DNA of 64,000 nt from Bacillota bacterium (GCA_040766775.1 JAXGPT010000002.1:34607-98606), one strand, 5' to 3'. Numbered from the stretch's first letter, positions 1,484-28,312 are shown. Notes: generated by a model from the sequence alone, not told the origin. A program made the numbers and translations.

Positions 1484-1957
1484 ATGGCCTACCTAAAAAA
1501 ATTAATTAGGTACAGCGAGGAAAAGCTGGATAAGCTGAAACAGATTGAAGAGATTACCATGCAGCAGAAGGCTGCTATTGACAGCCAAGACTATGCGGCG
1601 CTTAGTTCACTTGTTGAGGAAAAACAAAAAGTAATAGACTACATAGACTGGTGTGACAGCGCCTTTCAGGAGGAGCTCGAGAAGGTCAAAAGAAGACTGG
1701 GGGTAAAATCCATTAAGGACATAGGGGAAGCGGAGGACAAGGAAGAAAAGAAGGCCCTTGTTGACATTATTGGAATGGTCATTGAGACAATAGAGAAAAT
1801 ACAAGTCTTGGAAAGGGAGAACCAAAAGAAACTTCTCGAGTCCATGGACCAGGTAAAGGAAAAGTTAAGAAAAATAAGGAACGGGCAAAAAAGCGTTGCG
1901 GTATATGACAGCGGTATGGGCCTGGCATCCGGCAGTTTTTTGGATAAGAAAAAATAG
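1484..1957 (+). CDS. Coiled-coil flagellar protein, FliT/FlgN-like
   Basis: 157-aa charged helical protein in the position after fliS. Confidence 0.5.
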   Translation: MAYLKKLIRYSEEKLDKLKQIEEITMQQKAAIDSQDYAALSSLVEEKQKVIDYIDWCDSAFQEELEKVKRRLGVKSIKDIGEAEDKEEKKALVDIIGMVIETIEKIQVLERENQKKLLESMDQVKEKLRKIRNGQKSVAVYDSGMGLASGSFLDKKK

Positions 1958-1995
1958 GAGAGATTGATGAGAAACGCTGCCGATGGTATAATGAA

Positions 1996-2222
1996 ATTAA
2001 AGTTGAATAAAGCTTATTCGGGTCTGTGGTTGAAAGTCGATGCTAACCGCAGGCGAAGCGACCCACGTAAGCCGGTAAAAGTGCCGGTGAGCATGGTGCG
2101 GTTTAGGTGTAAGTCCTGCCTGCCGGGGATGGTCCCGGTGGAGACGGGGGGTAGTGAGGGCGTAATGCCGGAGCGAGACCTGCAGCAGGCGAGTGTGGGG
2201 TCAAAGACCAGGTCAGCCGAAT
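1996..2222 (+). ncRNA. Candidate structured ncRNA (raiA-motif-like) between fliT and hpf
   Basis: ~227-nt GC-rich block (~60% GC) in an AT-rich intergenic region; ends form a perfect 12-bp closing helix (aagcttattcgg...ccgaataagctt); the raiA motif is known to sit next to raiA/hpf in Firmicutes; the 86-aa ORF 1964..2224 over it looks spurious. Confidence 0.4.
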
Positions 2223-2330
2223 AAGCTTTATTTTTTATTTTACACTATTCGTTTTATTACTTCATATTTTTCCTTTTTGGGGTTAAAGTTGACATTAAAG
2301 TAATGATAATAAGCATAATTCGACATGGAT

Positions 2331-2427
2331 TTATCCACAGGTTTTGGACGCATTATTCACATCTATTAATGCAGAAACATGGGTTATTCACATAGTTATG
2401 CACATTATCCACATTTTTTGTTTCCAC
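2331..2427 (+). promoter_or_regulatory. DnaA-box cluster upstream of hpf
   Basis: TTATCCACA at 2331-2339 and 2405-2413 (perfect); TTATTCACA at 2354-2362 and 2385-2393 (8/9); weaker tTTCCACA at 2419-2427; all same orientation, ~25-30 bp spacing. Confidence 0.55.
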
Positions 2428-2643
2428 AAAACTGAACAATCGACTATCAAAATACTTAACTTTAACAATTCGGTGGTGGTAATATTTTTGTATTTTCCTG
2501 CGAATAGTTTTAATTGGACACAATTGGATATAAATATAATAAAAGATTATAATAAAATCAACACCTCAATACGAATAAACAACACTGCAATCTGGCATGT
2601 CAATTCTTAAAAACCATTACGATTATGATAGCATCTGGATTTT

Positions 2644-3171
2644 ATGCGTATTATTACGAGTGGGAAAAACATGGAAATAACCGATGCCTTTAGGGACACC
2701 ATTGAACGGAAGCTGGGAAAGCTGGGAAAGTTTTTTCATAAGGACACCGAGGCCCAGGTAACGCTCAACGTTGAAAAAAACCGGCACATAATAGAGGTCA
2801 CCATCCCCTTTGACGGAGTACTGATAAGGGCGGAAGAATGCACCGACGATATGTATACGTCCATAGACAAGGCAGTGGATAAACTGGAGCGCCAGATTAG
2901 CAAACATAAAACCAAGCTGGAAAAGAGATTTCGCGGAAGCAAGATGCTCTTTGAAAACATAGAGGCTACAGGGAAAGAGGACCTGGATAGGCCGAAGGTG
3001 GTAAGGACCAAAAGATTCGCCATGAAACCCATGCCCGTAGAAGAGGCTATTCTACAAATGGAACTTTTAGGCCATAACTTCTTTGTTTTTTCAAACGGTG
3101 ATACCGAAGAGGTAAACGTTGTATATAAAAGAAAGGACGGAAATTACGGTTTGATTGAGCCCATGTTCTAA
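2644..3171 (+). CDS. hpf: Ribosome hibernation promoting factor (long HPF/YvyD/RaiA family)
   Basis: 175 aa; N-terminus MRIITSGKNMEITDAFRD matches the YvyD N-terminus; position between fliT and secA as in B. subtilis. Confidence 0.85.
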   Translation: MRIITSGKNMEITDAFRDTIERKLGKLGKFFHKDTEAQVTLNVEKNRHIIEVTIPFDGVLIRAEECTDDMYTSIDKAVDKLERQISKHKTKLEKRFRGSKMLFENIEATGKEDLDRPKVVRTKRFAMKPMPVEEAILQMELLGHNFFVFSNGDTEEVNVVYKRKDGNYGLIEPMF

Positions 3172-3189: not shown

Positions 3190-3220
3190 GGCAGTGGAAT
3201 TTATATTCCACTGCCTTTTT
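3190..3220 (+). terminator. Intrinsic terminator of hpf (also the insertion target of intron copy 1)
   Basis: 11-bp stem ggcagtggaat/attccactgcc, 4-nt loop, then TTTTT. Confidence 0.75.
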
Positions 3221-5149
3221 ATGTTCGCCCGACATGGGCAGTAACTAGGCGGTGAAAGTCCGCTATGGGCTTGGTAGTGGGAACCATTAGCTAAACAGCA
3301 AGGGTGTTCACCGTGAGGTGAAATTGAGGAAGCTGCAGGCAAAGTCCTGCACTGACGGACAGGAACTGTGACATAAGGTATACGTGGAACGGACGAGTTT
3401 GCCACCAAAACGAAGTCCAACACTACCCGAATTCCACGGTGTAAATGCAGCGGTGACATGGGATGAAAGTTACTGTTCTTAATCGGGAGGTCTGGGTTGG
3501 CAGGGGTACGTCAGGCAGGGAATGAATTTTCCTCATGATAACCCATGCAGCGATGTATGGCCGAGCCTGTCAGAAGTCAAGAAGAGGTCATAGTACCATA
3601 CCGGATATATACGGAATGGGAAGGACCGAACGGAAGGATGTTTTGGTATTGTGAAGCACACTACGAAATGCGATGAGCGCAGCCAACTTCATACTGAAGA
3701 CTTACCTGTGTGAGGATAGGTGGAACCTGAAAGAAGTATGGAGCGTAGAGCATTTCGTTTACGTCTTCCAAAGACCAAAACGATGGCAAATGAGTATGCT
3801 GGAAGCTTGCTTGATAAAATACTTCTGACCGAGACAACATGAACAAGGCATACAAGAGGGTTAAGTCAAACAAAGGCAGCCATGGAATTGATGGAATGAC
3901 AGTAGATGAACTTCTACAGTTTCTGAAAGAAAAAATGGTGAGCAAATCAGGCAGTGTATCCGAGGGTACTTACGCAAGCCAAAACCTGTGCGGCGGATAG
4001 AGATAACAAAGCTGGCGGGAAAAAGACTACTTGCATACCAACAGTAGTGGACAGAGTAAGTGCAACAGGCAATAGCCCAGGTATTAAGCCCAATCTTGGA
4101 GAAGCGTGTTCTCGGAATTGAGCTTGCGGTTCAGGCCGGGCGACGCAAAACAGGCGGTATTGAAATGCATGAATACATAGAAGCAGGCTACGACTGGGGC
4201 TGTGGATATACGGACTTTGCGAAATACTTTGATACCGTAAACCACGACAAATTGATGGGCCTAATCCATAAAACCGTTAAGGATAGGGAGTAATATCACT
4301 TATCCGCAAATTCTTCAATCAGGAGTAATGATAAATGGAGTAGTGGTGGAAACGGAAGAGGGCTGTCCGCAGGTGGCCCCTTGGCGCCCGCTGCTATCCA
4401 ATATCATGCTGAATGAACTGGATAAGGAACTAGAAAGAAGGGGGCTTAAATTTCTGCCGGTACGATGATGTAAACATATACGTCAGAAGCAGGAAGGCAG
4501 CAGAAAGGGTAATGGCCAGTGTTACACGGTTTATCGAAGACGATTTAAAACTTCTCTAAGGTAAACCGTGAAAAGAGTACTGTTGATACAGGCTATGGCG
4601 GCTGAAATTTTTAGGTTTTCCTTTTACCGTAAAGATAGTGGTATAGGGATAAGGGTGCACCCAAGGTCACTACGAAGCTTAAATCCAAGCACAAAGGAGA
4701 TAACCTCAAGGAGTAATGCTATGAGCATGGAATACAGGATATTTAAACTGAACCAGAGCATTACCGGCTGTAAACTACTTTAGCCTGGCGGACATGAAAG
4801 CAATAGCTGCTAAACTTGACGGGTGGATAAGGCGCAGGATAAGAATGTGCTATTGAAACAGTGGAAGAAAGTTAGTACAAAGCACAGAAACCTTGTAAGG
4901 TTAGGTATAGATAACTACAAGCAAGTGGCTTTAGCAGTATACAACACGAGAAAAGCTACTGGTATACAGCCATTAAAGGCTTTATCCTTATTAAATCCAT
5001 CACCAATGAATACCTAAAAAGTTTGGGTCTAAAAGTCAGTATCCGAAAGATATTCATTAGTCCATTAAATATCTCGCTGAACTGCCGTATGCCGGACGGC
5101 ACGTACTATATGGTGAGAGGACGGGGGTTAATCATCCCTCCTACTCGAT
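3221..5149 (+). mobile_element. Group II intron copy 1 (class-C-like; inserted right after a terminator); reverse-transcriptase/maturase ORF decayed
   Basis: ~1.93 kb, >90% identical to 25371-27298; group II RT motifs (MNKAYKRVKSNKGSHGIDG.., PTVVDRVVQQAIAQVLSPI..) split by many stops/frameshifts; YADD motif deleted in this copy; domain V/VI-like 3' end ...gccgtatgccggacggcacgtac...ctactcgAT. Confidence 0.8.
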
Positions 5150-5309
5150 TTTTGTTGGTAAAATAAAGGAATTCATGAATTTAAGTAGAATTATATAAAT
5201 ATCCGTTTGGAATAGGAACCGGTGTAGTTAACAGTAGACTGATGGGAAGGAAAAGTATACCGGCTTACCATAACTGCTGAAGAGAGGGAAACAATGTGGT
5301 AAAAGCAGA

Positions 5310-5681
5310 ATGTCACAGAGACTGCCTTACAAGAACTTATTAATGATATTGAGGGTAATAGTTTCTTCCAAGGTCAAGCTGGATGATACAGGTAACCTAG
5401 TAGAAATACATGCACTGGCCGACAAGTCTAGGAATGCCAAGCAGATAGTGAGGGATATCCAGTCGGCTGTTACAGCCAAATTTGACCTGGAGATTGACCA
5501 TAGGATAATAAGCATTGCCCAGCTGAGTTGTGACAGTGTAATGCAAAAGGACCTGCGTATTGTATTCAAGGGAATGGAGGTTGCAAGCAAGGGGCTGGAG
5601 CTTGATGTTAAGGTTATGCTTTTCACAGAGAGAAGGATTACTGCGGCAGTCAAAAGGGTATTAACACGACTACCAGCATAA
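5310..5681 (+). CDS. Hypothetical protein
   Basis: 123-aa ORF; no family recognised. Confidence 0.35.
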   Translation: MSQRLPYKNLLMILRVIVSSKVKLDDTGNLVEIHALADKSRNAKQIVRDIQSAVTAKFDLEIDHRIISIAQLSCDSVMQKDLRIVFKGMEVASKGLELDVKVMLFTERRITAAVKRVLTRLPA

Positions 5682-5713
5682 ACAGAACCATAGCCCAGGC
5701 GACACTGAAAGCC

Positions 5714-5938
5714 TTGTCAGATTTTTTAAATATCGGGGAAATCTTTGTGGTGGAGGATGTGGGGACTCTCAACATAGCCAAAACAAATGTGGTGGTGGTA
5801 GCTGTTACGTGTGTCGATAAAAACGGGGAGCAGCTCCTTATAGGTTCTTCTATGAATTTGGGGGATATAAAGGAAGCAGTGGTCAAAGCAACTTTAGACG
5901 CGGTAAACAGAAGGATAACCAAATTAACGGGCAGATAA
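5714..5938 (+). CDS. Hypothetical protein
   Basis: 74-aa ORF directly downstream of 5310..5681; no family recognised. Confidence 0.35.
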   Translation: MSDFLNIGEIFVVEDVGTLNIAKTNVVVVAVTCVDKNGEQLLIGSSMNLGDIKEAVVKATLDAVNRRITKLTGR

Positions 5939-6149
5939 CTCTATAATTCAGGCCGGCACAGATAGCTTAAGCGGAGATGGTATATTATTTAGTTAGGCGT
6001 GAAAGCAGACAAATGAGTAAAGGAGGCTATATCCATGGCAAAGGTAATAAGCGTTCTGTTGTCGTTGATGACTTCTGTACTTAGCTGGCGGCGCCGGCTG
6101 GAGTTGGAAATAAAACCTATTATGCCGGCCTGAATTGGAGTTATGTCAG

Positions 6150-7420
6150 CCTAATGAGAATAAACAATGGACAGACTTCCTGTGAAAGCGTGAAAATTGA
6201 TAATTGGAGCAACTGTTATTATTGCAATAATATTAGGGATATTCTTTTAACGTATGGGGACTGGAAAAAGATATTGGAGAAGTAGTGTTTTTTGTTGTTT
6301 TGGCTACAATAGGCGAGTCATTAAGCATCGCTTTACCTAACCAAATCAGCGTTTCTGTGGTGTTCTCGTACATTTTGTTTGCATTGTAATGCTGTTCAAT
6401 CCTCTGACGGCAGGTTTACTAGTCGGGGGCTGGCCATTTAATGTTTGGTGTATAAGAGAGAAGGAAAATCGGGCAGTCTATTCAATACCCTTTATAAAAC
6501 AGTCTTTAATGTATGCACTGCTTTCGTTTCATCGGTTGTATCCGGTATAGTATACAGCTACCTATATGTGCCCGGGGGATATATAAACCTGGCAAGTGTT
6601 ATACTGCCGATTTCAATAGCATCTCTTGTTTACCTGGCGGTAAATTCTTCCACTGTTGTGCTATTGATTTCAAATCTGTTGAACAAGACCATCAGGTCTA
6701 TTTGGAAACAGAATGTTAATTGCAGGCAAAACTACCTAATAATGTCACCCCTTGGAGTAATACTGGCTATTGCATATCAAAACTACGGGTACTTTGGAAT
6801 ACTTTTATTTTTGGCCCGCTGCTTATGGCAAGATACCTTTAAACTGTATATCGAATTGAAGAGCAGCTACTCCGAAAACCATACAGGCCCTGTCCAGTGG
6901 ACACACTGAGGCCAAGGACCCGGTGACCAGCGGTCATGCCGAGCTGCAAGCTTATATCTTCGACAGTTATAGCCTGGGGGATGGGACTTTCGGAAGCCAG
7001 GATAGACAATATAATGTATGCGGGAATTCTCCACGATATCGGTAAAATAGGTATATCCGACAATGTTTTGCAAAAACCGCAGGCTTACCGGATGAATATG
7101 ATAAGATAAAGGAGCATTCCGCCATTGGTGCAGATATATTAAGGGACATTGACTTCTTAAGGGATGCTTCCAGAATAATCCGGCATCACCATGAGCGCTA
7201 TGACGGTAAAGGATATCCTGACGGTATAGGCGGAGAAGGGGTGCTCATTGAATCATATATCCTTGGAGGGGCCGATGCCTTTGATGCCATGACCAACGAC
7301 AGGCCGTACAGAAAAGCGTTGACAGCGGAAGGTCTTCCGGGATGATTATGAACAGGCGGGAAAGCAGTTCCATCCCCGGGTGGCGGATACTTTTGTTAAA
7401 CTATTTGATAAGGGTTGTTG
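6150..7420 (+). pseudogene. Membrane-anchored HD-GYP phosphodiesterase, multiply frameshifted
   Basis: TM-rich N-terminal pieces (6150-6909) then HD-GYP motifs in shifting frames: LHDIGKIGI, HHERYDGKGYPDG, GADAFDAMTNDRPYRKA. Confidence 0.6.
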
Positions 7421-8013
7421 AAACGTGCTGATTGAAGGCGCCTTGTTTTCGCTAATAATAGGCAAATTACGCGGGGGAAAGTTTAAGAGCTTGTGTAGGT
7501 GACAATACACCACCCATGGATGTTTATACTTCACTTTGTAATAGAATTCGAACCCTGTTTGCGGTAGCGGCCGGTATAATAGAGGTTGGTGCCAGTGACT
7601 GTATATACCTTCATTCCTTGTCATACTTATTCTGTTTATAGCGATAATATCCAACAGGAGCATCCGGCCATGTGGATCTTTTCTTGTGTGCTGTTAAATT
7701 TCATTGTGATATTCATAAACGGAGGGGCAAATGCCCATATCCTTATAAGGCCTGCAGAGGGCGGGACTGAAAAAGAAGCACAGATTATTTCCGCCGGCGG
7801 TATCATTACGCACCAGGCCCCTTACCCCTGGATACCAAGCTCTTTCTTGCGGATGTAATAGTTCTTCCTCCGCCATATCCTTTCCTGCTCGATGAGCATA
7901 GGCGACTTCATTATTTGCCCTAGTAATACTGTTTGTCCAAAAGGCAATGCTGCAAGAAAAATAGCGAGGCAGAGCCGGATGATATGTTTAAATATAAAGC
8001 AGAATCTAAATAT

Positions 8014-8037
8014 CGCCCCGTTAAGGGGTTTTTTTAA
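8014..8037 (+). terminator. Intrinsic terminator inside the ~700-bp non-coding gap upstream of secA
   Basis: cccc-gttaa-gggg hairpin followed by T7. Confidence 0.5.
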
Positions 8038-8144
8038 TGTGCCGCCTCACCTTAATTTTAAAGAGGTATGCCACATTTCTCTTAATTGCCTATTGGTTTA
8101 TTTCATGATAGAATTTACTTTGAATTAAAGACGAGGTGTTGGAT

Positions 8145-10639
8145 ATGGCAAATTTTTTATCAAAAATCCTGGGCAATACTAAATGAGAGGGAAATTAAAA
8201 AGCAACAAAACGGTGGAAGCGATAGAGGCACTGGAGGGGCAGATGAAGGCCCTCAGCGATGAACAGCTTAGGCAAAAGACCGATGAGTTTAAAAAAAGGC
8301 TTGCTGCGGGAGAAACCCTTGACGACCTGCTGGTGGAAGCCTTCGCGGTGGTAAGGGAGGCGTCGGTCAGGGTTCTAAATATGAGGCATTTCCCGGTGCA
8401 GCTTGCGGGAGGCATTGTGCTGCACCAGGCAGGATTGCCGAAATGAAAAACTGGCGGCTGCAAACCCGGTAGCGACACTGCCGGGTTACCTTAACGCCCT
8501 CTCCGGAAAGCGGGTTCATATAGTCACCGTTAACGATTACTTCCGGGAAGCAACAGGGACAGCCAGTGATGGGCGAAGTGTACAAGTTTCTGGGGCTGGA
8601 GGTCGGGTTTACGTCGGCCCGGACTTTGAACAGCGTAAAAAAGTCCTACAACGCTGACATAACCTTCGGTACCAACAACGAGTTTGGTTTTGACTACCTG
8701 AGGGATAACATGGTTATATACAAGGAGCAGATGGTGCAAAGGGGACTTAACTATGCCATAATAGACGAGGTGGACAGCATACTGATAGACGAGGCCAGGA
8801 CCCCGTTGATAATTTCCGGTGTCGGCGAGAAGTCCACCAAGCTTTATTCGGTGGTGGACACCTTTGTAAGGGGTCTAAGACCGGAGGAACACTTCACGGT
8901 GGACGAAAAGGCCAACACCGTAACGCTGACCGAAGAGGGAGTAAGGAAGGCGGAACAATATTTCAACCTGGAAAACCTGGCGGACCCGGAGAACATGGAG
9001 ATATCCCACCATATAAACCAGGCCCTCAAGGCTCACCGGCTTATGTCCCGTGATATTGACTACGTGGTGAAGGACAACCAGGTTATAATAGTTGACGAGT
9101 TTACCGGAAGACTAATGTTCGGCAGGCGGTACAGCGACGGGCTGCACCAGGCCATAGAAGCCAAGGAGAGGGTTAAGGTTGAAAGGGAATCCAAAACCCT
9201 GGCCACCATAACCTTCCAGAATTATTTCAGGATGTACAGCAAATTGGCAGGAATGACGGGTACCGCCAAGACCGAGGAGGAGGAATTCCGGGCTATCTAT
9301 GGCATGGACGTTGTGGAGATACCCACTAACATGCCCATGATAAGGGACGACCTGCCGGATATTGTATACCGGACCACCGAGGGAAAGTTTAAGGCGGTGC
9401 TAGAGGACATTATACAAAGGCATGCGGCTGGGCAGCCTATACTTGTGGGAACCATTAGCATAGAAAAATCAGAACTTTTGAGCAGGATGCTGCAAAGAAG
9501 GGGTGTGCCCCACGAGGTTCTAAACGCCAAGTACCATGAGAAGGAAGCCCAGATTATAGCACAGGCGGGTCAACGGGGTGCGGTGACCATATCCACCAAC
9601 ATGGCGGGCAGGGGTACCGACATAGTTCTCGGTGAAGGCGTTAAGGAACTGGGCGGACTGCATGTAATAGGCACCGAGCGGCATGAGAGCAGGAGGATTG
9701 ACAACCAGCTTCGAGGCCGGTCGGGAAGGCAGGGGGACCCCGGTTCTTCGCAGTTTTACATTTCCATGGAAGATGAACTGATGAGGCTTTTCGGGTCGGA
9801 GCGGATAATGGGCATGATAGACAAACTGGGCTTTGATGACACACAGCCCATTGAACACCCCATCCTGAGCAAGTCGATAGAGAATGCCCAGAAAAAGGTG
9901 GAGGCTCGAAACTTTGATATAAGGAAGCATGTGCTGCAGTATGACGATGTAATGAACAAGCAGAGGGAAGTAATTTATGCCCAGCGCAGAATGGTGCTGG
10001 AGGGGGAGAACCTGAAAGAACAGGTCCTCGAGATGATAAGCGACGTCATAGATTCAATGCTGGATATTTATACCTCCCACAGCCAGTACCCCGAGGAATG
10101 GGACTTAAAGGGCCTTGAAACCTACGCGAGAAAGGTGTTTGTAATTAAAGACCCTCTGCCCTTTGGAAACCCCGAGGACCTAACCCGGGATATTCTTAAG
10201 GATATGCTTATGGAAAAGGCCATTGGAATTTATAACGAGAAGGAAGAAAAGATTGGCTCCGAACAGATGAGGGAACTGGAAAGGGTAATACTGCTCCGGG
10301 TTGTGGACATGAAGTGGATGGAAAACATAGACAACATGGACCAGCTGAGGCAGGGTATTGGCCTTAGGGCGTACGGGCAGGAGGACCCGGTTATAGCGTA
10401 CCAGAAGGAAGGCTACGAGATGTTCCAGGAAATGATAAATTCAATAAAGGAAGACACGGTAAGCTACCTGTTCGGGGTTAGGATAGAGCAGGTGCCAAAA
10501 AGGAAAGGGTGGCCCAGCCGGTGGAGGCAAGCCAGGGGGAAGGAGCCAAGAAACCGGTCAAAAAAGAGGGCAAGGTGGGCAGGAACGACCCCTGTCCCTG
10601 CGGAAGCGGCAAGAAATTCAAAAAGTGCTGTGGTAGGTA
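8145..10639 (+). CDS. secA: Preprotein translocase ATPase SecA (at least 5 frameshifts in this assembly)
   Basis: [10 protein letters not shown].., [62 protein letters not shown] and the Zn-finger tail [18 protein letters not shown] all present but in different frames; RBS before ATG 8145. Confidence 0.85.
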
Positions 10640-10651
10640 AGGAGTGAAATG

Positions 10652-11769
10652 TATGTTGGAATTGGAACAATACAGCCAGCAGATGGAAAGCATTGAGGAA
10701 GATATGCAGGAAATGAGGGTTTCCCTTTGACGTGGACAATGCCGTTCAAAGGATTGCGGAGCTGGAAAAGGAAATGGCGGACCCCGGCTTTTGGAACGAC
10801 AGCGATAGGGCTGCTGCCACGATAGACAGTTTAAAGGGTTTGAAGTCGAGAGTGGACAAATACAACGCCGTTAATAAGGAATTTGAAGATTTAAAGGTGC
10901 TGCTTGAGCTGGCGGTGGAGGAAGAGGACGATGGTGCACTGGCATCCGAGATACAGGATAGTTTTGCCGGGTTTGTTGAACGCTTGGAGCGGCTTAAGAT
11001 TGAAACGCTGCTTAATGGCAAATATGACGATAAAAACGCAATTCTTTCGCTGCACTCGGGTGCCGGCGGGCTGGAGGCCCAGGACTGGGCGGAAATGCTG
11101 ATGAGGATGTATACCCGGTGGGCGGAGGACAAGGGATATAGGGTTAAGGTGCTGGACCTTTTGGCGGACGACGAGGGAGGAATTAAAAGTGCCACTCTGC
11201 TGGTGGAGGGAGAAAACGCCTACGGCTACCTGAAGGCGGAGAAGGGCGTGCACCGGCTGGTTCGGATTTCCCCCTTCGATTCCTCCGGCAGGAGGCATAC
11301 TTCCTTTGCTTCGTTGGATGTAATGCCGGAACTGGACGACACGGTGGAGGTGGATATAGACCCGGACGACCTGAGGATTGACACCTATAGGTCCAGCGGC
11401 GCCGGTGGGCAGCACGTGAACAAAACCGATTCCGCCGTCAGGATAACCCATATTCCCACCGGTATAGTGGTGCAGTGCCAGAACGAAAGGTCCCAGCACA
11501 GCAACCGGGAAACCGCCATGAGAATGCTTAAGTCAAAACTTTTAGAGCTTAAGGAGCGGGAACAAAAAGAAAAGATAGAGGACCTGCAGGGCGAGTACAA
11601 CCAGATTGCCTGGGGCAGCCAGATAAGGTCCTATGTATTTCACCCCTACAGTATGGTCAAGGACCACAGGACCAACGTGGAGGTGGGGAATGTAAACAGG
11701 GTAATGGACGGGGACTTGGACCCGTTTATATTTGCTTATCTTAGGGCGCAAAAGGACAGCGTGGATTAA
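10652..11769 (+). CDS. prfB: Peptide chain release factor 2, with programmed +1 frameshift
   Basis: Frame-0 leader ends at CTT TGA C (10725-10731) preceded by a GAGGG SD-like motif; +1 frame continues DVDNAVQRIAELEKEM...GGQHVNKTDSAVRITH (GGQ motif); one extra indel in the leader near 10680. Confidence 0.85.
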
Positions 11770-13146: not shown

Positions 13147-14293
13147 GGGTGGAAAGGTTTTTACAATGGAGGGAGAAGTCCTCGACGGGGGATTTGTACT
13201 TATAGAAAAGGGCAGGATATCCAAAGTAGGGCAGGGGGAACCGCCGGGGCGTTACCTTGATATGGCACAGCTAATTGACGCCGAAGGAATGTTCATAATG
13301 CCGGGGTTTGTGGATGCCCACTGCCATATTGGTCTTTTTGAGGACGGCATAGGCTTTGAAGGGGAGGACGGTAACGAGGCGACCGACCCGGTAACGCCCC
13401 ATTTGAGGGCCATAGATGCTATAAACCCCATGGACAGAGCCTTTGAGGAAGCGGTCCGGGGCGGTGTAACCACGGCGGTGACCGGGCCTGGCAGCGCAAA
13501 CGTGCTGGGCGGAGAGTTTGTGGCGATAAAAACGGTGGGCGGCAGCGTTGAGGACATGGTTATAAAAAACCCCGTCGCCATTAAGTGCGCCTTCGGGGAA
13601 AACCCAAAAAGGGTGTACTATGAGAAAAAGACCGCTCCGATGACCCGGATGGCAACGGCGGCCCTGCTGCGGGAAGCCCTTATGAAGGCAAAGAGGTACA
13701 TGGAAAGAAAGGAACGGGCCAAGGAGGACAAGCAGCCGGAACTGGATGTGAAAATGGAATCGCTTGTAAGGGTGCTTAGGAAGGAGCTGCCGCTCAAGGC
13801 CCATGCCCACAGGGCGGATGATATAATGACCGCCCTTAGGATAGCCCGGGAGTTTGACATAGACATGACCATAGAGCACTGCACCGAGGGGCACAGGATA
13901 ACCGAGACGCTGGTGCGCGAGGGACGAGGCCTTGTGGTGGGTCCCGGTCTTAGCTCCCGGTCCAAGTATGAGCTTAGGGACCTAACTTTCAAGACTCCGA
14001 GCATCCTGTCGGCTGCCGGCCTGGATATAGCCATTATGACCGACCATCCGGTGATACCCATACAATACCTGCCGGTGTGCGCGGCCCTTGCGGTGAAGGA
14101 AGGTATGGACGAGTACAAGGCCCTGGAGGCCATTACAATAAATCCAGCCAGGATTACCGGCATAGCCGACAGGGTAGGGAGCCTGTTGCCGGGGAAGGAT
14201 GCGGATATAGCCATTTTTGACGGGCACCCCTTCAACTATACCACCAAGGCCCGGTATGTAATAGTAAACGGCAACCTAGTGTATAGTAATTAG
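13133..14293 (+). CDS. Amidohydrolase-family metal-dependent hydrolase
   Basis: MMLIKGGKVF...FVDAHCHIG, typical amidohydrolase N-terminus; ORF track extends upstream but overlaps the MFS gene. Confidence 0.65.
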   Translation: MMLIKGGKVFTMEGEVLDGGFVLIEKGRISKVGQGEPPGRYLDMAQLIDAEGMFIMPGFVDAHCHIGLFEDGIGFEGEDGNEATDPVTPHLRAIDAINPMDRAFEEAVRGGVTTAVTGPGSANVLGGEFVAIKTVGGSVEDMVIKNPVAIKCAFGENPKRVYYEKKTAPMTRMATAALLREALMKAKRYMERKERAKEDKQPELDVKMESLVRVLRKELPLKAHAHRADDIMTALRIAREFDIDMTIEHCTEGHRITETLVREGRGLVVGPGLSSRSKYELRDLTFKTPSILSAAGLDIAIMTDHPVIPIQYLPVCAALAVKEGMDEYKALEAITINPARITGIADRVGSLLPGKDADIAIFDGHPFNYTTKARYVIVNGNLVYSN

Positions 14294-15967: not shown

Positions 15968-16164
15968 GTGGATTCCTTCTTGTTCTCCCGGTCCGGGGAA
16001 TCCTTATCCTTACCGGGGCCCGACAAACTTTTTAGCTGTTCAAAGTCGGTGTTTTGCGGCATGAGGTTTGTACCATCAAGGCTTTCTATCCTGGAAAAGG
16101 CCGCGTCGGTAAACACGTTTGCCCTATACGCCCTCTCGACAAGGGTCTTTTTTCGTTTTCCCAT
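15964..16164 (-). CDS. Small hypothetical protein (66 aa)
   Basis: Strong RBS AAGGAGGG 7 nt before the ATG on the minus strand. Confidence 0.4.
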
Positions 16165-16245
16165 AATATTTCCCTCCTTATATTATTATCTTTTCTCCCG
16201 GTGGTGTATAATATATGTGTGATTTTTTGGAGAAGGGGAAAGGAT

Positions 16246-17313
16246 ATGTCGTATTTGAAAGCAGCGGCAAAAAAATTGGAAAAGTTCAAGAACGGACAGG
16301 ATACAATTATCCTTGCGGTGGAGACTTCCTGTGACGAGACCTCCTGCGCGGTTTTGAAAAACGGCCGGGAGGCCCTTTCAAACGTGATATCCACACAGGT
16401 AGATATTCACAGGAAATACGGCGGTGTGGTTCCCGAGATTGCCTCCCGGAAGCACATAGAGCTTATTGACTACGTGATTGACCAAGCGCTGCGGGAGGCG
16501 GGAGTATCGCTGCGGGATTTGGATGCGGTAGCGGTCACCAACGGCCCGGGGCTTGTGGGGGCGCTGCTGGTGGGTGTTTCCCATGCCAAGGCGATGGCCT
16601 TTGCACTGGGGGTGCCGCTGGTGGGGGTGCATCATATAGAGGGACATATTTGTGCCAATTACGTGCAGCACAAGGACCTGGAGCCCCCCTTCGTCTGCCT
16701 GGTGGTCTCCGGGGGGCACAGCCACCTTGTACATGTCAAGGACTATGGGCGGTATGAGATACTGGGCAGGACAAGGGACGATGCCGCCGGGGAAGCCTTT
16801 GACAAGGTGGCCCGGGCACTGGGACTGGGGTATCCCGGCGGGCCGCTGATTGAAAGGGAAGCCCGAAAGGGCGACCCCGAAGCGGTGGACTTCCCAAGGA
16901 CTTACCTTGAGGCGGGAAGCCTGGACTTCAGTTTCAGCGGCTTAAAGACCGCGGTGTTGAACCATTTGAATCAGTGCAGGCAAACAGGCCGGCCGGTTAA
17001 CACCGCCGATATTGCGGCGAGTTTTCAGAGCGCGGTAGTAGAGGTGCTTGTGAACAAAACCATGGCGGCGGCCAAAAAATGCGGTACCGGTGTTGTGGCC
17101 CTTGCCGGGGGCGTTGCGTCAAACGGAAGGCTGCGCATGGAGTTTGAAAACCGGTGTGCCGACGAAGGACTGCAGCTTAGATACCCTTCCAGGGTCCTGT
17201 GTACCGACAATGCAGCCATGATTGGTGCGGCGGGCTATTACAGGCTTTGCAAGGGGCTGGCAAGCCCTATGACTCTTAATGCGGTAGCTTCAATGGAAAT
17301 TGATTCTTATTAA
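16246..17313 (+). CDS. tsaD: tRNA N6-adenosine threonylcarbamoyltransferase TsaD (Gcp/YgjD)
   Basis: [14 protein letters not shown]...HIEGH motifs; ATG 16246 with GGAGAAGGGGAAAGG RBS; TATAAT at ~16208. Confidence 0.85.
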
Positions 17314-17373: not shown

Positions 17374-17484
17374 TGTGGATATTGTGGACATGCCCGGCCG
17401 TGACAGCGAAAAACCCTTTTAATTGTTGTGGATAAACTTGTGGACGGTGTGGACAGTTTGCGGAAATATAAATAATTATCCACA
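17374..17484. promoter_or_regulatory. DnaA-box cluster downstream of tsaD/gcp
   Basis: TTATCCACA perfect at 17476-17484 (+) and 17427-17435 (-); near boxes at 17374-82, 17384-92, 17439-47, 17448-56; sits between convergent tsaD and bioY. Confidence 0.6.
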
Positions 17485-25342: not shown

Positions 25343-25370
25343 GGGCAGACCGATCGGTCTGCCCTATTTT
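25343..25370 (+). terminator. Intrinsic terminator of gdh (insertion target of intron copy 2)
   Basis: gggcagaccgatcggtctgccc hairpin followed by TATTTT. Confidence 0.7.
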
Positions 25371-27298
25371 ATGTTCGCCTGACATGGGCAGTAACTAGGC
25401 GGTGAAAGTCCGCTATGGGCTTGGTAGTGGGAACCATTAGCTAAACAGCAAGGGTGTTCACCGTGAGGTGAAATCTGGAGGAAGCTGCGGCAGGCAAAAA
25501 AAGTCCCGGCACCCCTGACGACAGGAACTGCATACAAGGCATACGTGGAACGGACGAGTTTGCATAACAAAACGAAGTCCAACACTACCCGAATTCCACG
25601 GTGTAAATGCAGCGGTGACATGGGATGAAAGTTACTGTTCTTAATCGGGAGGTCTGGCAGGTACGTCAGGCAGGGAATGAATTTTCCCCATGATAACCAT
25701 GCAGCGATGTATGGCTGATTGTCAGAAGTCAGCAGAGGTCATAGTACCATACCGGATATATACGGAATGGGAAGGACCGAACGGAAGGATGTTTTGCATT
25801 GTGAAGCACACTACGAAATGCGATGAGCGCAGCCAACTTCATACTGAAGACTACCTGTGTGAGGATAGGGTGGAACCCGAAAGAAGCATGGGATAAAGAG
25901 AGTATTTCGTTTACGTCTTCCAAAGACCAAAACGATGGCAATGAGTATGCCGGAAGCTTGCCGATAAAATACTTGACCGAGACAACATGAACAAGGCATA
26001 CAAGAGGGTTAAGTCAAACAAAGGCAGCCATGGAATTGATGGAACGACAGTAGATGAACTTCTACAGTTTCTGAAAGAAAAATGGTGAGCAAATCAGCAG
26101 CAGCAGGTATCCGGGAGAGGGTACTTACAAGCCAAAACCCGTGCGGCGGATAGAGATACCAAAGCCGGGCGGCGGCAAAAGACTACTTGGCATACCAACA
26201 GTAGTGGACAGAGAGTGCAACAGGCAATAGCCCAGGTATTAAGCCCAATCTTTGAGAAGCAGTTCTCGGAATTGAGCTAGTGGGTTCAGGCCGGGAAGGG
26301 ACGCAAAACAGGCGGTATTGAAATGCAAGGAATACAGAAGCAGGCTACGACTAAGGATATTGACCTTGCGAAATACTTTTGATACCGTAAACCACGACAA
26401 ATTGATGGGCCTAATCCATAAAACCGTTAAGGATAGGGGGAGTAATATCACTTATCCGCAAATTCCTTCAATCAGGAGTAATGATAAATGAGTAGTGGTG
26501 GAAACGGAAGAGGGCTGTCCGCAGGGCATTCCCTTAAGCCCGCTGCTATCCAATATCATGCTGAATGAACTGGATAAGGAACTAGAAAGAAGGGGGCTTA
26601 AATTCTGCCGGTACGCCGATGATGTAAACATATACGTCAGAAGCAGGAAGGCAGCAGAAAGGGTAATGGGCCAGTGTTACACGGTTTATCGAAGACGATT
26701 TAAAAACTTAAGGTAAACCGTGAAAAGAGCAATTGCTGATAGGCCATGGCGGCTGAAATTTTTAGGTTTCTCCTTTTACCGTAAAGATAGTGGTATAGGG
26801 ATAAGGGTGCACCCAAGGTCACTAGCGAAGTTTAAATCCAAGCTAAAGGAGATAACCTCAAGGAGGCAATGCTATGAGCATGGAATACAGGATATTTAAA
26901 CTGAACCAGAGCATTACCGGCTGGGTAAAGTCACTTTAGCCTGGCGGACATGAAAGCAATAGCTGCTAAACTTGACGGGTGGATAAGGCGCAGGATAAGA
27001 ATGTGCTACTGGAAACAGTGGAAGAAAGTTAGTACAAAGCAACAGAAACCTTGTAAGGTTAGGTATAGACAACTACAAGGCATGGCAGTATGCCAACACG
27101 AGGAAAAGCTTACTGGCACACACAATAGCTTTATCCTGATAAATCCATCACCAATGAATACCTAAAAAGTTTGGGTCTAAAGTCAGTATCCGAAAGATAT
27201 TCATTAGTCCATTAATATCTTTTCGAACCGCCGTATGCCGGACGGCACGTACGGTGGTGTGAGAGTGACGGTGGGGTTAATCATCCCTCCTACTCGAT
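25371..27298 (+). mobile_element. Group II intron copy 2 (class-C-like; inserted right after a terminator); RT ORF decayed but keeps YADD
   Basis: Same 5' end as copy 1 directly after the T-tract; RT pieces include ..EGCPQGIPLSPLLSNIMLNELDKELERRGLKFCRYADDVNIYV..; multiple frameshifts; 3' end ...ctactcgAT. Confidence 0.8.
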
Positions 27299-28312
27299 TT
27301 CCTCAACCTTTACTTCGTATGTTTTACCGTTTATTTTAAACCTTAATAGTCTTGTGGAAACCACCTCGCTGGACACACAGGTCTTTTTGATTGCGGATAT
27401 TTTATCCTCCATCTCGCGTATCAGCTGCTGTGCCTCGGGTACCGTCACCTTTACAAACCTTATTTTGTCCCCGGGTTTTGCCTGGGCAATCCTGGGCAGG
27501 TCCGCCCAAATGACGTTTTGCAATCTTGGTATAACCCCCGGTGGTTTGCCGATCGGCCAGCATAATTATTGGCTGCCCGTGGCCCGGCACCTGGACAGCA
27601 CCCATTGCTATTCCGTCCGAAATGATATCCCCGCCCTTGACGTGCTCGATATTTTGCCCTTTAACCTATATCCCATCCTGTCACATTCATTGGTTACCCT
27701 CGTAATAATCAGAGAGGAAGGTATTTATACCATCAATGGTAAAACAGTCCTCCTGGGGGCCTAAAGTAACCCTTAGTTCCAGTGTGGTGGAATATTCGGG
27801 AACAAATTCCGCAGGCGCCTACCCCCAGCCTGGCTGGACTTCGATAGATGCCAACCTCAAGTATGTCCCCCGCTTTTAAAGGTCTGCCCTTAAAACCGCC
27901 GATTTTTCCCCTGGTATAAGTGGATTTGCTTCCCATAACCTCGGGAACTTTTATGCCGCCGGAAAAGGCTATATAGCTCCTGCACCCCGACCAGACCCCT
28001 GAAAGGAAAGTTTGATCCCTTATTTACAATAATGCTTTCCCACATGGGTACCGCTCCGTCGTTTATTACCGGGGACAGGTTGCCGCCGGTGATGGCTATG
28101 GCCATCTGGTCCATAAATTCAATTTGGGGGCCCATCATGGTGGCTTCCAAAACTGCTTCCAGTTCGTCATTCCCCACCAGTATGTTGCTTACCCTGTGGG
28201 AGAAGGTATCCATTACACCGGAAACGGGAACACCATACTGCTGATACCCGTATCTTCCGCTGTCCTCAATCAGCGTTAAAAGGCCCGGGTTTATTATTTT
28301 TACGTTTCCCAT
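27290..28312 (-). CDS. pxpC: 5-oxoprolinase subunit C (PxpC/KipA family), frameshifted
   Basis: N-terminus MGNVKIINPGLLTLIEDSGRYGYQQYGVPVSG..; GQPIIMLADRQTTGGYTKIA and VIWADLPRIAQAKPGDKIRFVKV in other frames; stop codon lies inside the intron 3' end. Confidence 0.7.

Follow-up and report, generated by a model that had tools for sequence, protein, structure and literature searches.

A raiA motif (ModT) RNA gene, very probably transcribed from its own promoter, between flgN and hpf of a Bacillota bacterium

Genes and features at the locus

We analyzed a stretch of 64,000 nucleotides from a Bacillota bacterium (GCA_040766775.1, JAXGPT010000002.1:34607-98606), hereafter called the window, in which positions are counted from the first letter. 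Close to its beginning, a group of flagellar genes is followed by a GC-rich RNA element and by hpf, encoding a long-form HPF, with secA and prfB located further downstream (Table 1). The gene immediately upstream of the element had been labeled fliT in the initial annotation; its product scores above the Pfam cut-off for the FlgN family and below that for FliT (18.3 vs. 29.5), and the gene is referred to as flgN in the following. It occupies the place that fliT has in the B. subtilis gene order. On the other side, 419 nt separate the end of the element at 2225 from the start of hpf at 2644, in agreement with the earlier estimate of ∼420 nt. The hpf side represents the known neighborhood of raiA motif RNAs, and the flagellar genes stand in the place of comFC. 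Within this RNA family, a location upstream of hpf/raiA (66%) or downstream of comFC (74%) is frequent, not strictly defining (PMC10861870), and motility as well as cyclic-dinucleotide genes have been noted near raiA by Soares et al. (PMC10861870). In relatives of the organism studied here, a MASE9/HD-GYP-type gene is found two genes downstream of hpf.

Based on the composition of the window, positions 1996-2222 have a GC content of 0.573 and positions 2013-2225 one of 0.601; the spacer 2226-2643 reaches 0.282, and the genes on either side 43-44%. The GC-rich block in an AT-rich spacer described in the initial annotation is therefore real (57.3% vs. 28.2%), and so is the 12-bp helix it had reported for the two ends of the block. 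This helix is contained in a longer inverted repeat consisting of AATAAAGCTTATTCGG (2006-2021) and CCGAATAAGCTTTATT (2217-2232), which pair perfectly over 16 of 16 bp. When the region 1950-2300 was shuffled (n = 300), the longest perfect inverted repeat obtained was 12, and a length of at least 13 was reached in none of the 300 shuffles. The predicted fold of 1999-2245 has a free energy of –97.7 kcal/mol (z = –3.64), a value not matched by any of 200 dinucleotide shuffles. Minimum-free-energy folding was used for this z-score only; as a candidate for the native structure it was rejected, since it recovers P1 and misses the pseudoknot-containing core. The 5′ boundary of the block had to be moved: the structured RNA begins at about 2006/2013 instead of 1996, and 1964-1992 is a promoter.

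Table 1. Features of the flgN-hpf region and neighboring genes in the window
Feature	Position	Strand	Basis or remark
FliD, C-terminal part	40-1059
FliS	1056-1469
FlgN-family protein	1484-1957		Pfam, 58.9 bits (cut-off 30.5)
86-codon ORF, judged spurious	1964-2224	+	overlaps promoter and RNA
σA (σ70)-type promoter	1964-1992	+	consensus scan, 10/12 with TG extension
Predicted primary transcript, ∼238-245 nt	1999-2243	+	inferred from promoter spacing and U-tract after P1
raiA motif RNA, full model match	2013-2225	+	Rfam RF03072
P1 extension, 7 bp, lineage-specific	2006-2012/2226-2232	+	part of the 16/16 inverted repeat
P1a	2013-2021/2217-2225	+	compensatory changes in 8/9 pairs, 28 homologues
GU bulge (P1a/P1b)	2022-2023	+	P1 feature of PMC12968392; invariant in 28 homologues
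P1b, 5′ strand CUG	2024-2026/2214-2216	+	mapping; invariant in 28 homologues
GGU bulge (P1b/P1c)	2211-2213	+	mapping
P1c, 5′ strand UGGU	2027-2030/2207-2210	+	mapping; invariant in 28 homologues
U-GAA-A junction (UGAAA) replacing P2, GAA(A) tetraloop-like turn	2031-2035	+	sequence; 3D fold inferred
P3 hairpin	2036-2062	+	mapping
P3a, GUCG/CGAC	2036-2039/2059-2062	+	100% paired, 2 compensatory pairs
P3 A-rich asymmetric internal loop, AU/GAAG	between P3a and P3b	+	mapping
P3b, GC/GC	2042-2043/2053-2054	+	compensatory change present
PK1, ACCGCA/UGCGGU, 6 bp, P3b apical loop with P5-P6 linker	2046-2051/2097-2102	+	100% paired in 28 homologues
P4, CCAC/GUGG	2063-2066/2195-2198	+	invariant in 28/28 homologues
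P5 hairpin	2067-2092: 2067-2068/2091-2092, 2071-2075/2084-2088	+	5 pairs with compensatory change
PK2, UG/CA, within 8-nt linker GGUCAAAG (2199-2206)	2094-2095/2202-2203	+	mapping onto PMC12968392
Conserved single-stranded linker, UUUAGGUGUAAGU-type, PK1 to P6	2103-2114	+	aligned to model UAGAaGUAAGu
P6-P7-P8 three-way domain	2115-2189	+	mapping and covariation
P6	2115-2119/2185-2189	+	100% paired, 3/5 pairs compensatory
P7, predicted 9 bp, loop AUGG	2120-2128/2133-2141	+	inner part covaries
P8	2145-2148/2179-2182, 2154-2155/2173-2174, 2159-2161/2167-2169	+	P8a compensatory in 4/4 pairs
U-rich tract UUUAUUUUUUAUUUU, putative intrinsic termination site	2227-2243	+	overlaps/follows 3′ strand of extended P1
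Promoter-like site before hpf	2525-2553
Long-form HPF (hpf)	2644-3171
Group II intron	3226-5147		inserted relative to the related contig L125
MASE9 fragment	6445-6909
secA	8566-10647
prfB	10732-11769

The element is a member of the raiA motif RNA family

When the whole window was compared with Rfam 15, a single match to the raiA family (RF03072) was obtained, located at 2013-2225 on the plus strand and unique within the 64 kb. The match reaches 182.3 bits, the gathering score being 101.3 (cmscan, E = 2.1e-46), and spans the complete model (1-209 of 209). In a permissive scan of both strands of the region 1850-2700, no other Rfam family was detected at E ≤ 1, including 6S RNA, SRP RNA and RNase P, the other identities for which the initial annotation had suggested a model search and which are hence rejected. 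Together with the conservation of the closing helix and the lack of a conserved translated ORF described below, the strong full-length covariance-model match bears out the raiA-like reading that had been put forward from the sequence.

raiA RNA, termed ModT in Clostridioides difficile, is found in Bacillota and Actinomycetota as a large, highly structured noncoding RNA that acts in trans, and the family ranks among the most widespread orphan RNAs of bacteria. The element thus belongs to an already known and curated RNA class and is not new. The nearest named raiA (L113) is 80% identical. Coming from an uncultured lineage of anaerobic digesters, the RNA adds a data point to the family and opens no new question; it is notable for its unusually long perfect P1 and for its flagellar-gene neighbor.

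Anatomy of the RNA and comparison with homologues

We mapped the published architecture, as described by Soares et al. 2024 (PMC10861870) and in the cryo-EM study of He et al. 2026 (PMC12968392), onto the sequence. Every core element could be placed: P1a/b/c, P3a/b, PK1, P4, P5, PK2, P6, P7 and P8 (Table 1). The RNA belongs to the P2-less, P8-containing subtype, which is also that of C. acetobutylicum raiA RNA (Ca-raiA), for which the U-GAA-A subtype has been described (PMC12968392). Both RNAs share P1a/b/c including the GU and GGU bulges, U-GAA-A in place of P2, P3a/b with the A-rich internal loop, a 6-bp PK1, P5 and, as predicted elements, P4, PK2 in the GGUCAAAG linker and the P6-P7-P8 junction. 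The setting upstream of hpf, with secA and prfB further downstream, is shared as well. Compared with Ca-raiA, the RNA in the window has seven additional perfect P1 pairs and a P7 predicted to comprise 9 bp, whereas 4 bp are reported for Ca-raiA. A P6-P7-P8 domain with an E-loop in P8 is present in 68% of the family; the corresponding E-loop letters here read GGUA/GAGA instead of the consensus AGUA/GAAA, with A165 being a G in the window. In the upstream position, fliD-fliS-flgN are found instead of comFC.

To this mapping we added a comparison with distant homologues. A search pattern built on the conserved 3′ segment yielded 120 genome loci, among which 77 distinct RNAs carry both end motifs. 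From the P2-less, P8-containing subtype, 28 RNAs were aligned with the structure imposed; the alignment is poor in distal P7 and P8. The imposed structure pairs in 92.3% of the cells, in contrast to 79.3% in shuffles and 31-40% when the partners were slid by 1-3 columns. Changes on both sides occur in 36 of the 64 pairs, and none of 500 shuffles reached the observed value for any measure. The initial annotation had suggested a covariation check of the fold; in the closing helix, eight of the nine P1a pairs show such changes across the 28 distant homologues. PK1 carries double changes at four of its six pairs, and P6, inner P7 and P8a covary as well.

The window sequence itself departs from near-invariant positions at three sites, and at two of them the pairing partner has changed in a compensating way (A2046-U2102 and C2145-G2182); in the latter, the G-C pair of the consensus is reversed. 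Within PK1, both deviations from the consensus, A2046-U2102 and C2047-G2101, are compensated. The letters of P4 and PK2 fit the published model; all of them are invariant and hence carry no covariation signal in either direction. Seven positions of the single-stranded linker between PK1 and P6 (U92, A93, G94, G97, U98, A100 and G101) are also invariant in the 28 homologues. For P1b, P1c and the PK2 linker, invariance is partly circular, because these elements belonged to the retrieval pattern. An additional 3-bp helix of the Rfam consensus (2040-2042/2194-2196) shows no covariation and is broken in 6 of the 28 RNAs; for this reason it was rejected, and the P3b/P4 assignment of the cryo-EM structure is preferred.

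Conservation in close relatives

Eight close relatives (L124-L131) were collected from the contigs of the ORF-product matches described below and from contigs encoding an identical FlgN. The identical FlgN sequence occurs in GCA_900198705.1 and GCA_050952605.1 of NCBI and in JGI metagenomes; two related contigs originate from biogas-fermenter and fermentation metagenomes. The order fliD-fliS-flgN-RNA-hpf is common to all eight. The four flgN-hpf spacers that were scanned (L124, L125, L129 and L130) contain raiA by Rfam with 181-184 bits, and the closing helix is conserved in these orthologous spacers. A more distant locus (L121) consists of a gene with a Pribosyltran domain (comFC-like), raiA (175 bits), hpf, secA and prfB. 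Across the eight relatives, 6 of the 213 positions of the RNA vary. None of them lies outside the P5, P7 and P8 hairpin loops, and three are in the P5 loop; in the adjoining spacer, ∼45 of 287 positions vary.

Possible role of the folded RNA

The transcript is predicted to fold into the P2-less, P8-containing form, in which a long P1 arm, interrupted by the GU and GGU bulges, is closed by 16 perfect pairs. In the core, a kinked P3 would come together with PK1, P4 and PK2 as well as with P5 and the P6-P7-P8 junction. In C. difficile, ModT is very abundant and stable, can be complemented in trans and has a short isoform ending after P1; a delayed entry into stationary phase has been reported, and loss of modT alters c-di-GMP and sporulation (PMC11706538). 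Loss of raiA in C. acetobutylicum leads to sporulation and aggregation defects that are rescued from a plasmid (PMC10861870). Abundance, stability and action in trans at the transition to stationary phase are properties reported from C. acetobutylicum, C. difficile and relatives only (PMC10861870, PMC11706538). For four raiA RNAs, in vitro binding by the KhpA-KhpB heterodimer at about 2 µM has been reported (PMC12968392). We tentatively propose that the rigid core and the P1 arm could serve as a protein-binding platform and would not regulate hpf in cis, and regard this as possible without calling it probable.

The RNA could instead be a ribozyme or a receptor for a small molecule such as a cyclic dinucleotide, roles that are favored by Soares et al. 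(PMC10861870). Conservation exceeds 97% at about 25% of the positions, the compact core resembles a pocket, loss of ModT alters c-di-GMP (PMC11706538), and the relatives harbor the MASE9/HD-GYP-type gene mentioned above. Yet the raiA literature searched reports neither a catalytic activity nor a ligand, and we consider such a role possible, if slightly less likely than a protein-binding platform. With 6S RNA and other abundant housekeeping noncoding RNAs, the RNA shares a probably single-copy gene with its own promoter and orthologues that are very abundant and linked to the growth phase, whereas its fold is unrelated and it matches no 6S, SRP or RNase P model.

Promoter and 3′ end

Upstream of the RNA we identified a sequence motif of the σA type, composed of a –35 box TTGATG (1964-1969), a 17-nt spacer and an extended –10 element TGgTATAAT (1984-1992). 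Both hexamers are invariant in the eight close relatives, whose 17-nt spacer varies at 5 positions. Of 44 low-GC homologues, 31 have a promoter scoring at least 9/12 in the 70 nt that precede raiA, compared with 4 of 38 control regions. From this promoter the RNA would be transcribed on its own, with a predicted transcription start at about 1999-2001. A single mapped σA start site is known for ModT of C. difficile (PMC11706538), and the two loci share the intergenic σA promoter directly upstream as well as a GC content far above that of the surroundings.

A scan found no terminator between flgN and the RNA, and read-through from the flagellar operon may therefore contribute to its synthesis. 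Such read-through could even be the sole source, the RNA then having no promoter of its own and representing the processed 3′ end of a fliD-fliS-flgN transcript, a view that the distance of only 6 nt between the flgN stop codon (1955-1957) and the –35 box would suit. This is very unlikely in light of the invariant promoter boxes flanking a variable spacer, of the same promoter placement in homologues whose upstream genes are unrelated, and of the start site mapped in C. difficile: read-through may add to transcription from the promoter, and is not expected to replace it.

The perfect 16-bp P1 is followed by UUUUAUUUU, and the length of the T-run differs by ±1 among relatives; the base of the P1 stem is A/U-rich. 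The terminator scan made no call at P1 and the U-tract, because the "loop" would be the entire 195-nt RNA. P1 would act as the terminator stem and the RNA would probably end at the U-tract right after its 3′ strand, at a length of ∼240 nt, as in the short isoform of ModT, ModT(S), whose 3′ end likewise lies directly behind P1. This is the weakest step of the reconstruction. P1 followed by a U-tract occurs in 2 of 20 low-GC homologues, compared with a separate hairpin terminator in 6 and nothing recognizable in 12, and was rejected as a general end of raiA RNAs. A second hairpin terminator further downstream, which generates the long isoform of ModT, was not seen in the window by the terminator scan.

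The proximity of P1 and the U-tract, as in the expression platform of a terminator, also brings to mind a riboswitch or attenuator in which ligand-dependent formation of P1 and the U-tract would terminate transcription ahead of hpf. The RNA is indeed located upstream of hpf in the same orientation, Rfam lists the family under the type "Cis-reg; riboswitch", and it shares with riboswitches a large, conserved fold of aptamer type on the 5′ side of a same-strand gene. But hpf is separated from the RNA by the 419-nt AT-rich spacer, which contains a promoter-like site of its own and the DnaA-box array described below; the 16-bp helix P1 is constitutive, no alternative pairing being visible; and across the family, distance and orientation relative to the neighboring gene are variable and complementation in trans is complete (PMC10861870, PMC11706538). 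Unlike in riboswitches, no aptamer is coupled to an expression platform in the hpf leader and the orthologues act in trans, which makes control of hpf in cis highly improbable.

The overlapping open reading frame

The promoter and the RNA are overlapped by an ORF of 86 codons, and gene callers annotate a corresponding ORF of 85-86 amino acids in several relatives. The initial annotation had considered this ORF spurious. No Pfam family matches its product, and only four related proteins were found in 5.8 billion protein clusters, all of them encoded over raiA of relatives; the two distant ones share with it only the stretches that correspond to conserved RNA segments. Among the 77 raiA homologues, the frame is open in four and both open and frame-preserving in two, and length differences between homologues are not multiples of three but spread evenly over 0, 1 and 2 (mod 3). 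By comparison, an open forward frame arises in 14.5% of shuffles of the RNA sequence. All six substitutions within the RNA among close relatives fall into RNA loops, and, reading the codons by eye, all six change the amino acid.

In one respect the initial annotation had to be amended: it had stated that a ribosome-binding site is absent, whereas AGGAG occupies 1956-1960, with ATG1967 following after 6 nt, both in the window and in L124 and L128-L131. The site is not conserved, as the position reads AGCGAG in L125-L127. In addition, the ATG1967 start codon is located within the –35 box of the RNA's own promoter, so that the transcript of the RNA cannot carry it. A small basic protein (1964/1967-2224) would have to be made from read-through mRNA of the flagellar operon, and although an open frame, an AGGAG ahead of the ATG in six sequences and gene calls in relatives speak for it, it is hardly credible given the lack of a family, the few open frames and out-of-phase indels among homologues, the loop-confined substitutions that all alter the protein and the loss of AGGAG in three relatives. 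Judged from the sequence, the ORF of 86 codons is no gene but a by-product of the RNA sequence with its high GC content.

Taken together, these results indicate that 2006-2232 (+) is very probably the gene for a raiA motif (ModT) RNA transcribed from its own promoter, with the ORF being an artefact. For the annotation of this and related genomes, a false protein gene thereby gives way to an RNA gene that has correct boundaries, a promoter and a probable end.

A DnaA-box array upstream of hpf

The spacer between raiA and hpf contains five matches to the DnaA box (TTATCCACA, at most one mismatch) on the plus strand within 83 bp (2331-2413). Including a sixth, weaker box at about 2421-2430, the array extends from 2331 to 2430. 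Its conserved part is a three-box module, TTATNCACA-N3-TTATNCACA-TTATCCACA. In the whole window, 35 DnaA-box matches are found compared with 14.3 ± 4 expected. By hand count, 2 of 53 positions within boxes are variable among close relatives, compared with 11 of 47 between boxes. The 500 nt downstream of raiA in 22 low-GC loci contain 31 boxes, in contrast to 3.8 ± 1.9 in dinucleotide shuffles, and six of these 22 loci have at least three boxes.

A metagenome scan with the three-box module yielded 120 loci, 99 of them with enough downstream DNA. In 17 of these 99, a start of hpf on the same strand follows 150-360 nt downstream, these hpf genes being 43-97% identical to that of the window. raiA is present in only 3 of the 13 module-hpf loci with enough upstream DNA, and the idea that the boxes are part of raiA was therefore rejected. 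Since the module precedes hpf mostly without raiA, the array, as far as sequence comparison goes, is in many Bacillota a feature of the region ahead of hpf, and not one of the RNA.

A literature search found no paper linking DnaA boxes to hpf/yvyD, and yvyD/hpf is absent from the main text of two papers on DnaA binding in B. subtilis (PMC3245932, PMC4447404). Putative DnaA binding ahead of hpf, be it for direct control of the ribosome-hibernation factor or for titration of DnaA as by the B. subtilis clusters, appears quite possible, if somewhat short of an even chance. If true, the raiA RNA gene in Clostridia would adjoin a sensor of replication status, and the array is the only element at this locus that could lead somewhere new. 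A second cluster of DnaA boxes, at 17374-17484, lies just behind tsaD (gcp), where B. subtilis has one of its known DnaA-box clusters (PMC3245932, PMC4447404), an agreement that supports the motifs in the window as real DnaA sites.

DnaA boxes upstream of hpf

The spacer between the raiA-motif (ModT) RNA gene (Rfam RF03072) and hpf carries an array of DnaA boxes at 2331-2430, all of them on the plus strand (see the table). Contained in this array is a module of the form box-N3-box-box. Among 99 metagenome loci bearing this module, hpf lies 150-360 nt downstream of it in 17, and most of these hpf-linked loci lack raiA. We found no report of such an array or module upstream of hpf in the literature searched.

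Five nucleotides upstream of the first box, we observed the heptamer TTCGACA (2319-2325), the reverse complement of the Spo0A-box core, TGTCGAA. The heptamer is unchanged across the close relatives, and the corresponding spacer of Paraclostridium (locus L052) contains two copies.

A second cluster of DnaA boxes, three in number, on opposite strands and two of them perfect, is located at 17374-17484, directly downstream of tsaD/gcp (16054-17313). Its position equals that of the B. subtilis gcp-ydiF DnaA-box cluster (PMC3245932; PMC4447404).

Positions of DnaA boxes upstream of hpf and of RNA elements in the window and in two other loci
Feature	Position	Strand	Source and score
DnaA box TTATCCACA	2331 and 2405	+	
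DnaA boxes with one mismatch	2353, 2384, 2396	+	
DnaA box TTTCCACA	~2421-2430	+	
Group II intron D1-D4	3307-3626 and 25457-25777		Rfam
Purine riboswitch aptamer, RF00167	49361-49461	+	Rfam, 83.8 bits
HEARO RNA in L121 (more distant relative)	13596-13807	-	Rfam, 106.8 bits
c-di-AMP riboswitch in L184 (other fetched locus), upstream of hpf region	4406-4552	+	Rfam, 101.6 bits

Ribosome-binding sequences

In every relative with sequence at the position corresponding to 2629-2634, the Shine-Dalgarno sequence of hpf is GAGAGGAGC. The window itself reads GATAGCATC, with three substitutions (2629, 2632 and 2634) in a region otherwise 99.6% identical to three of the close relatives (L128, L130 and L131). 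This genome may have impaired translation of hpf, or the sequence may have been altered or contain an error here.

An AGGAG (1956-1960) directly follows the flgN stop codon, 6 nt upstream of ATG1967 in the 86-codon frame overlying the RNA gene and its promoter, which we judged to be an artefact. L124 and L128-L131 keep this pentamer; L125-L127 have lost it.

Group II introns and the genes downstream of hpf

A group II intron occurs twice in the window, at 3226-5147 and ~25367-27300; the copies share 90% identity with numerous indels. With the close relative L125 as reference, the first copy is inserted directly after the hpf terminator (3190-3215); its reverse-transcriptase frame is split into short ORFs.

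On the 3′ side of this copy, 5148-10647 aligns to L125 with 86% identity and 112 gaps, and several genes appear fragmented in comparison with the relatives. The MASE9/HD-GYP gene, encoding 424 amino acids in the relatives, is represented by an ORF of 154 amino acids, and the start of the secA ORF falls near residue 138 of the DEAD domain. The fragmented genes would be either pseudogenes or products of indel errors in the assembly.
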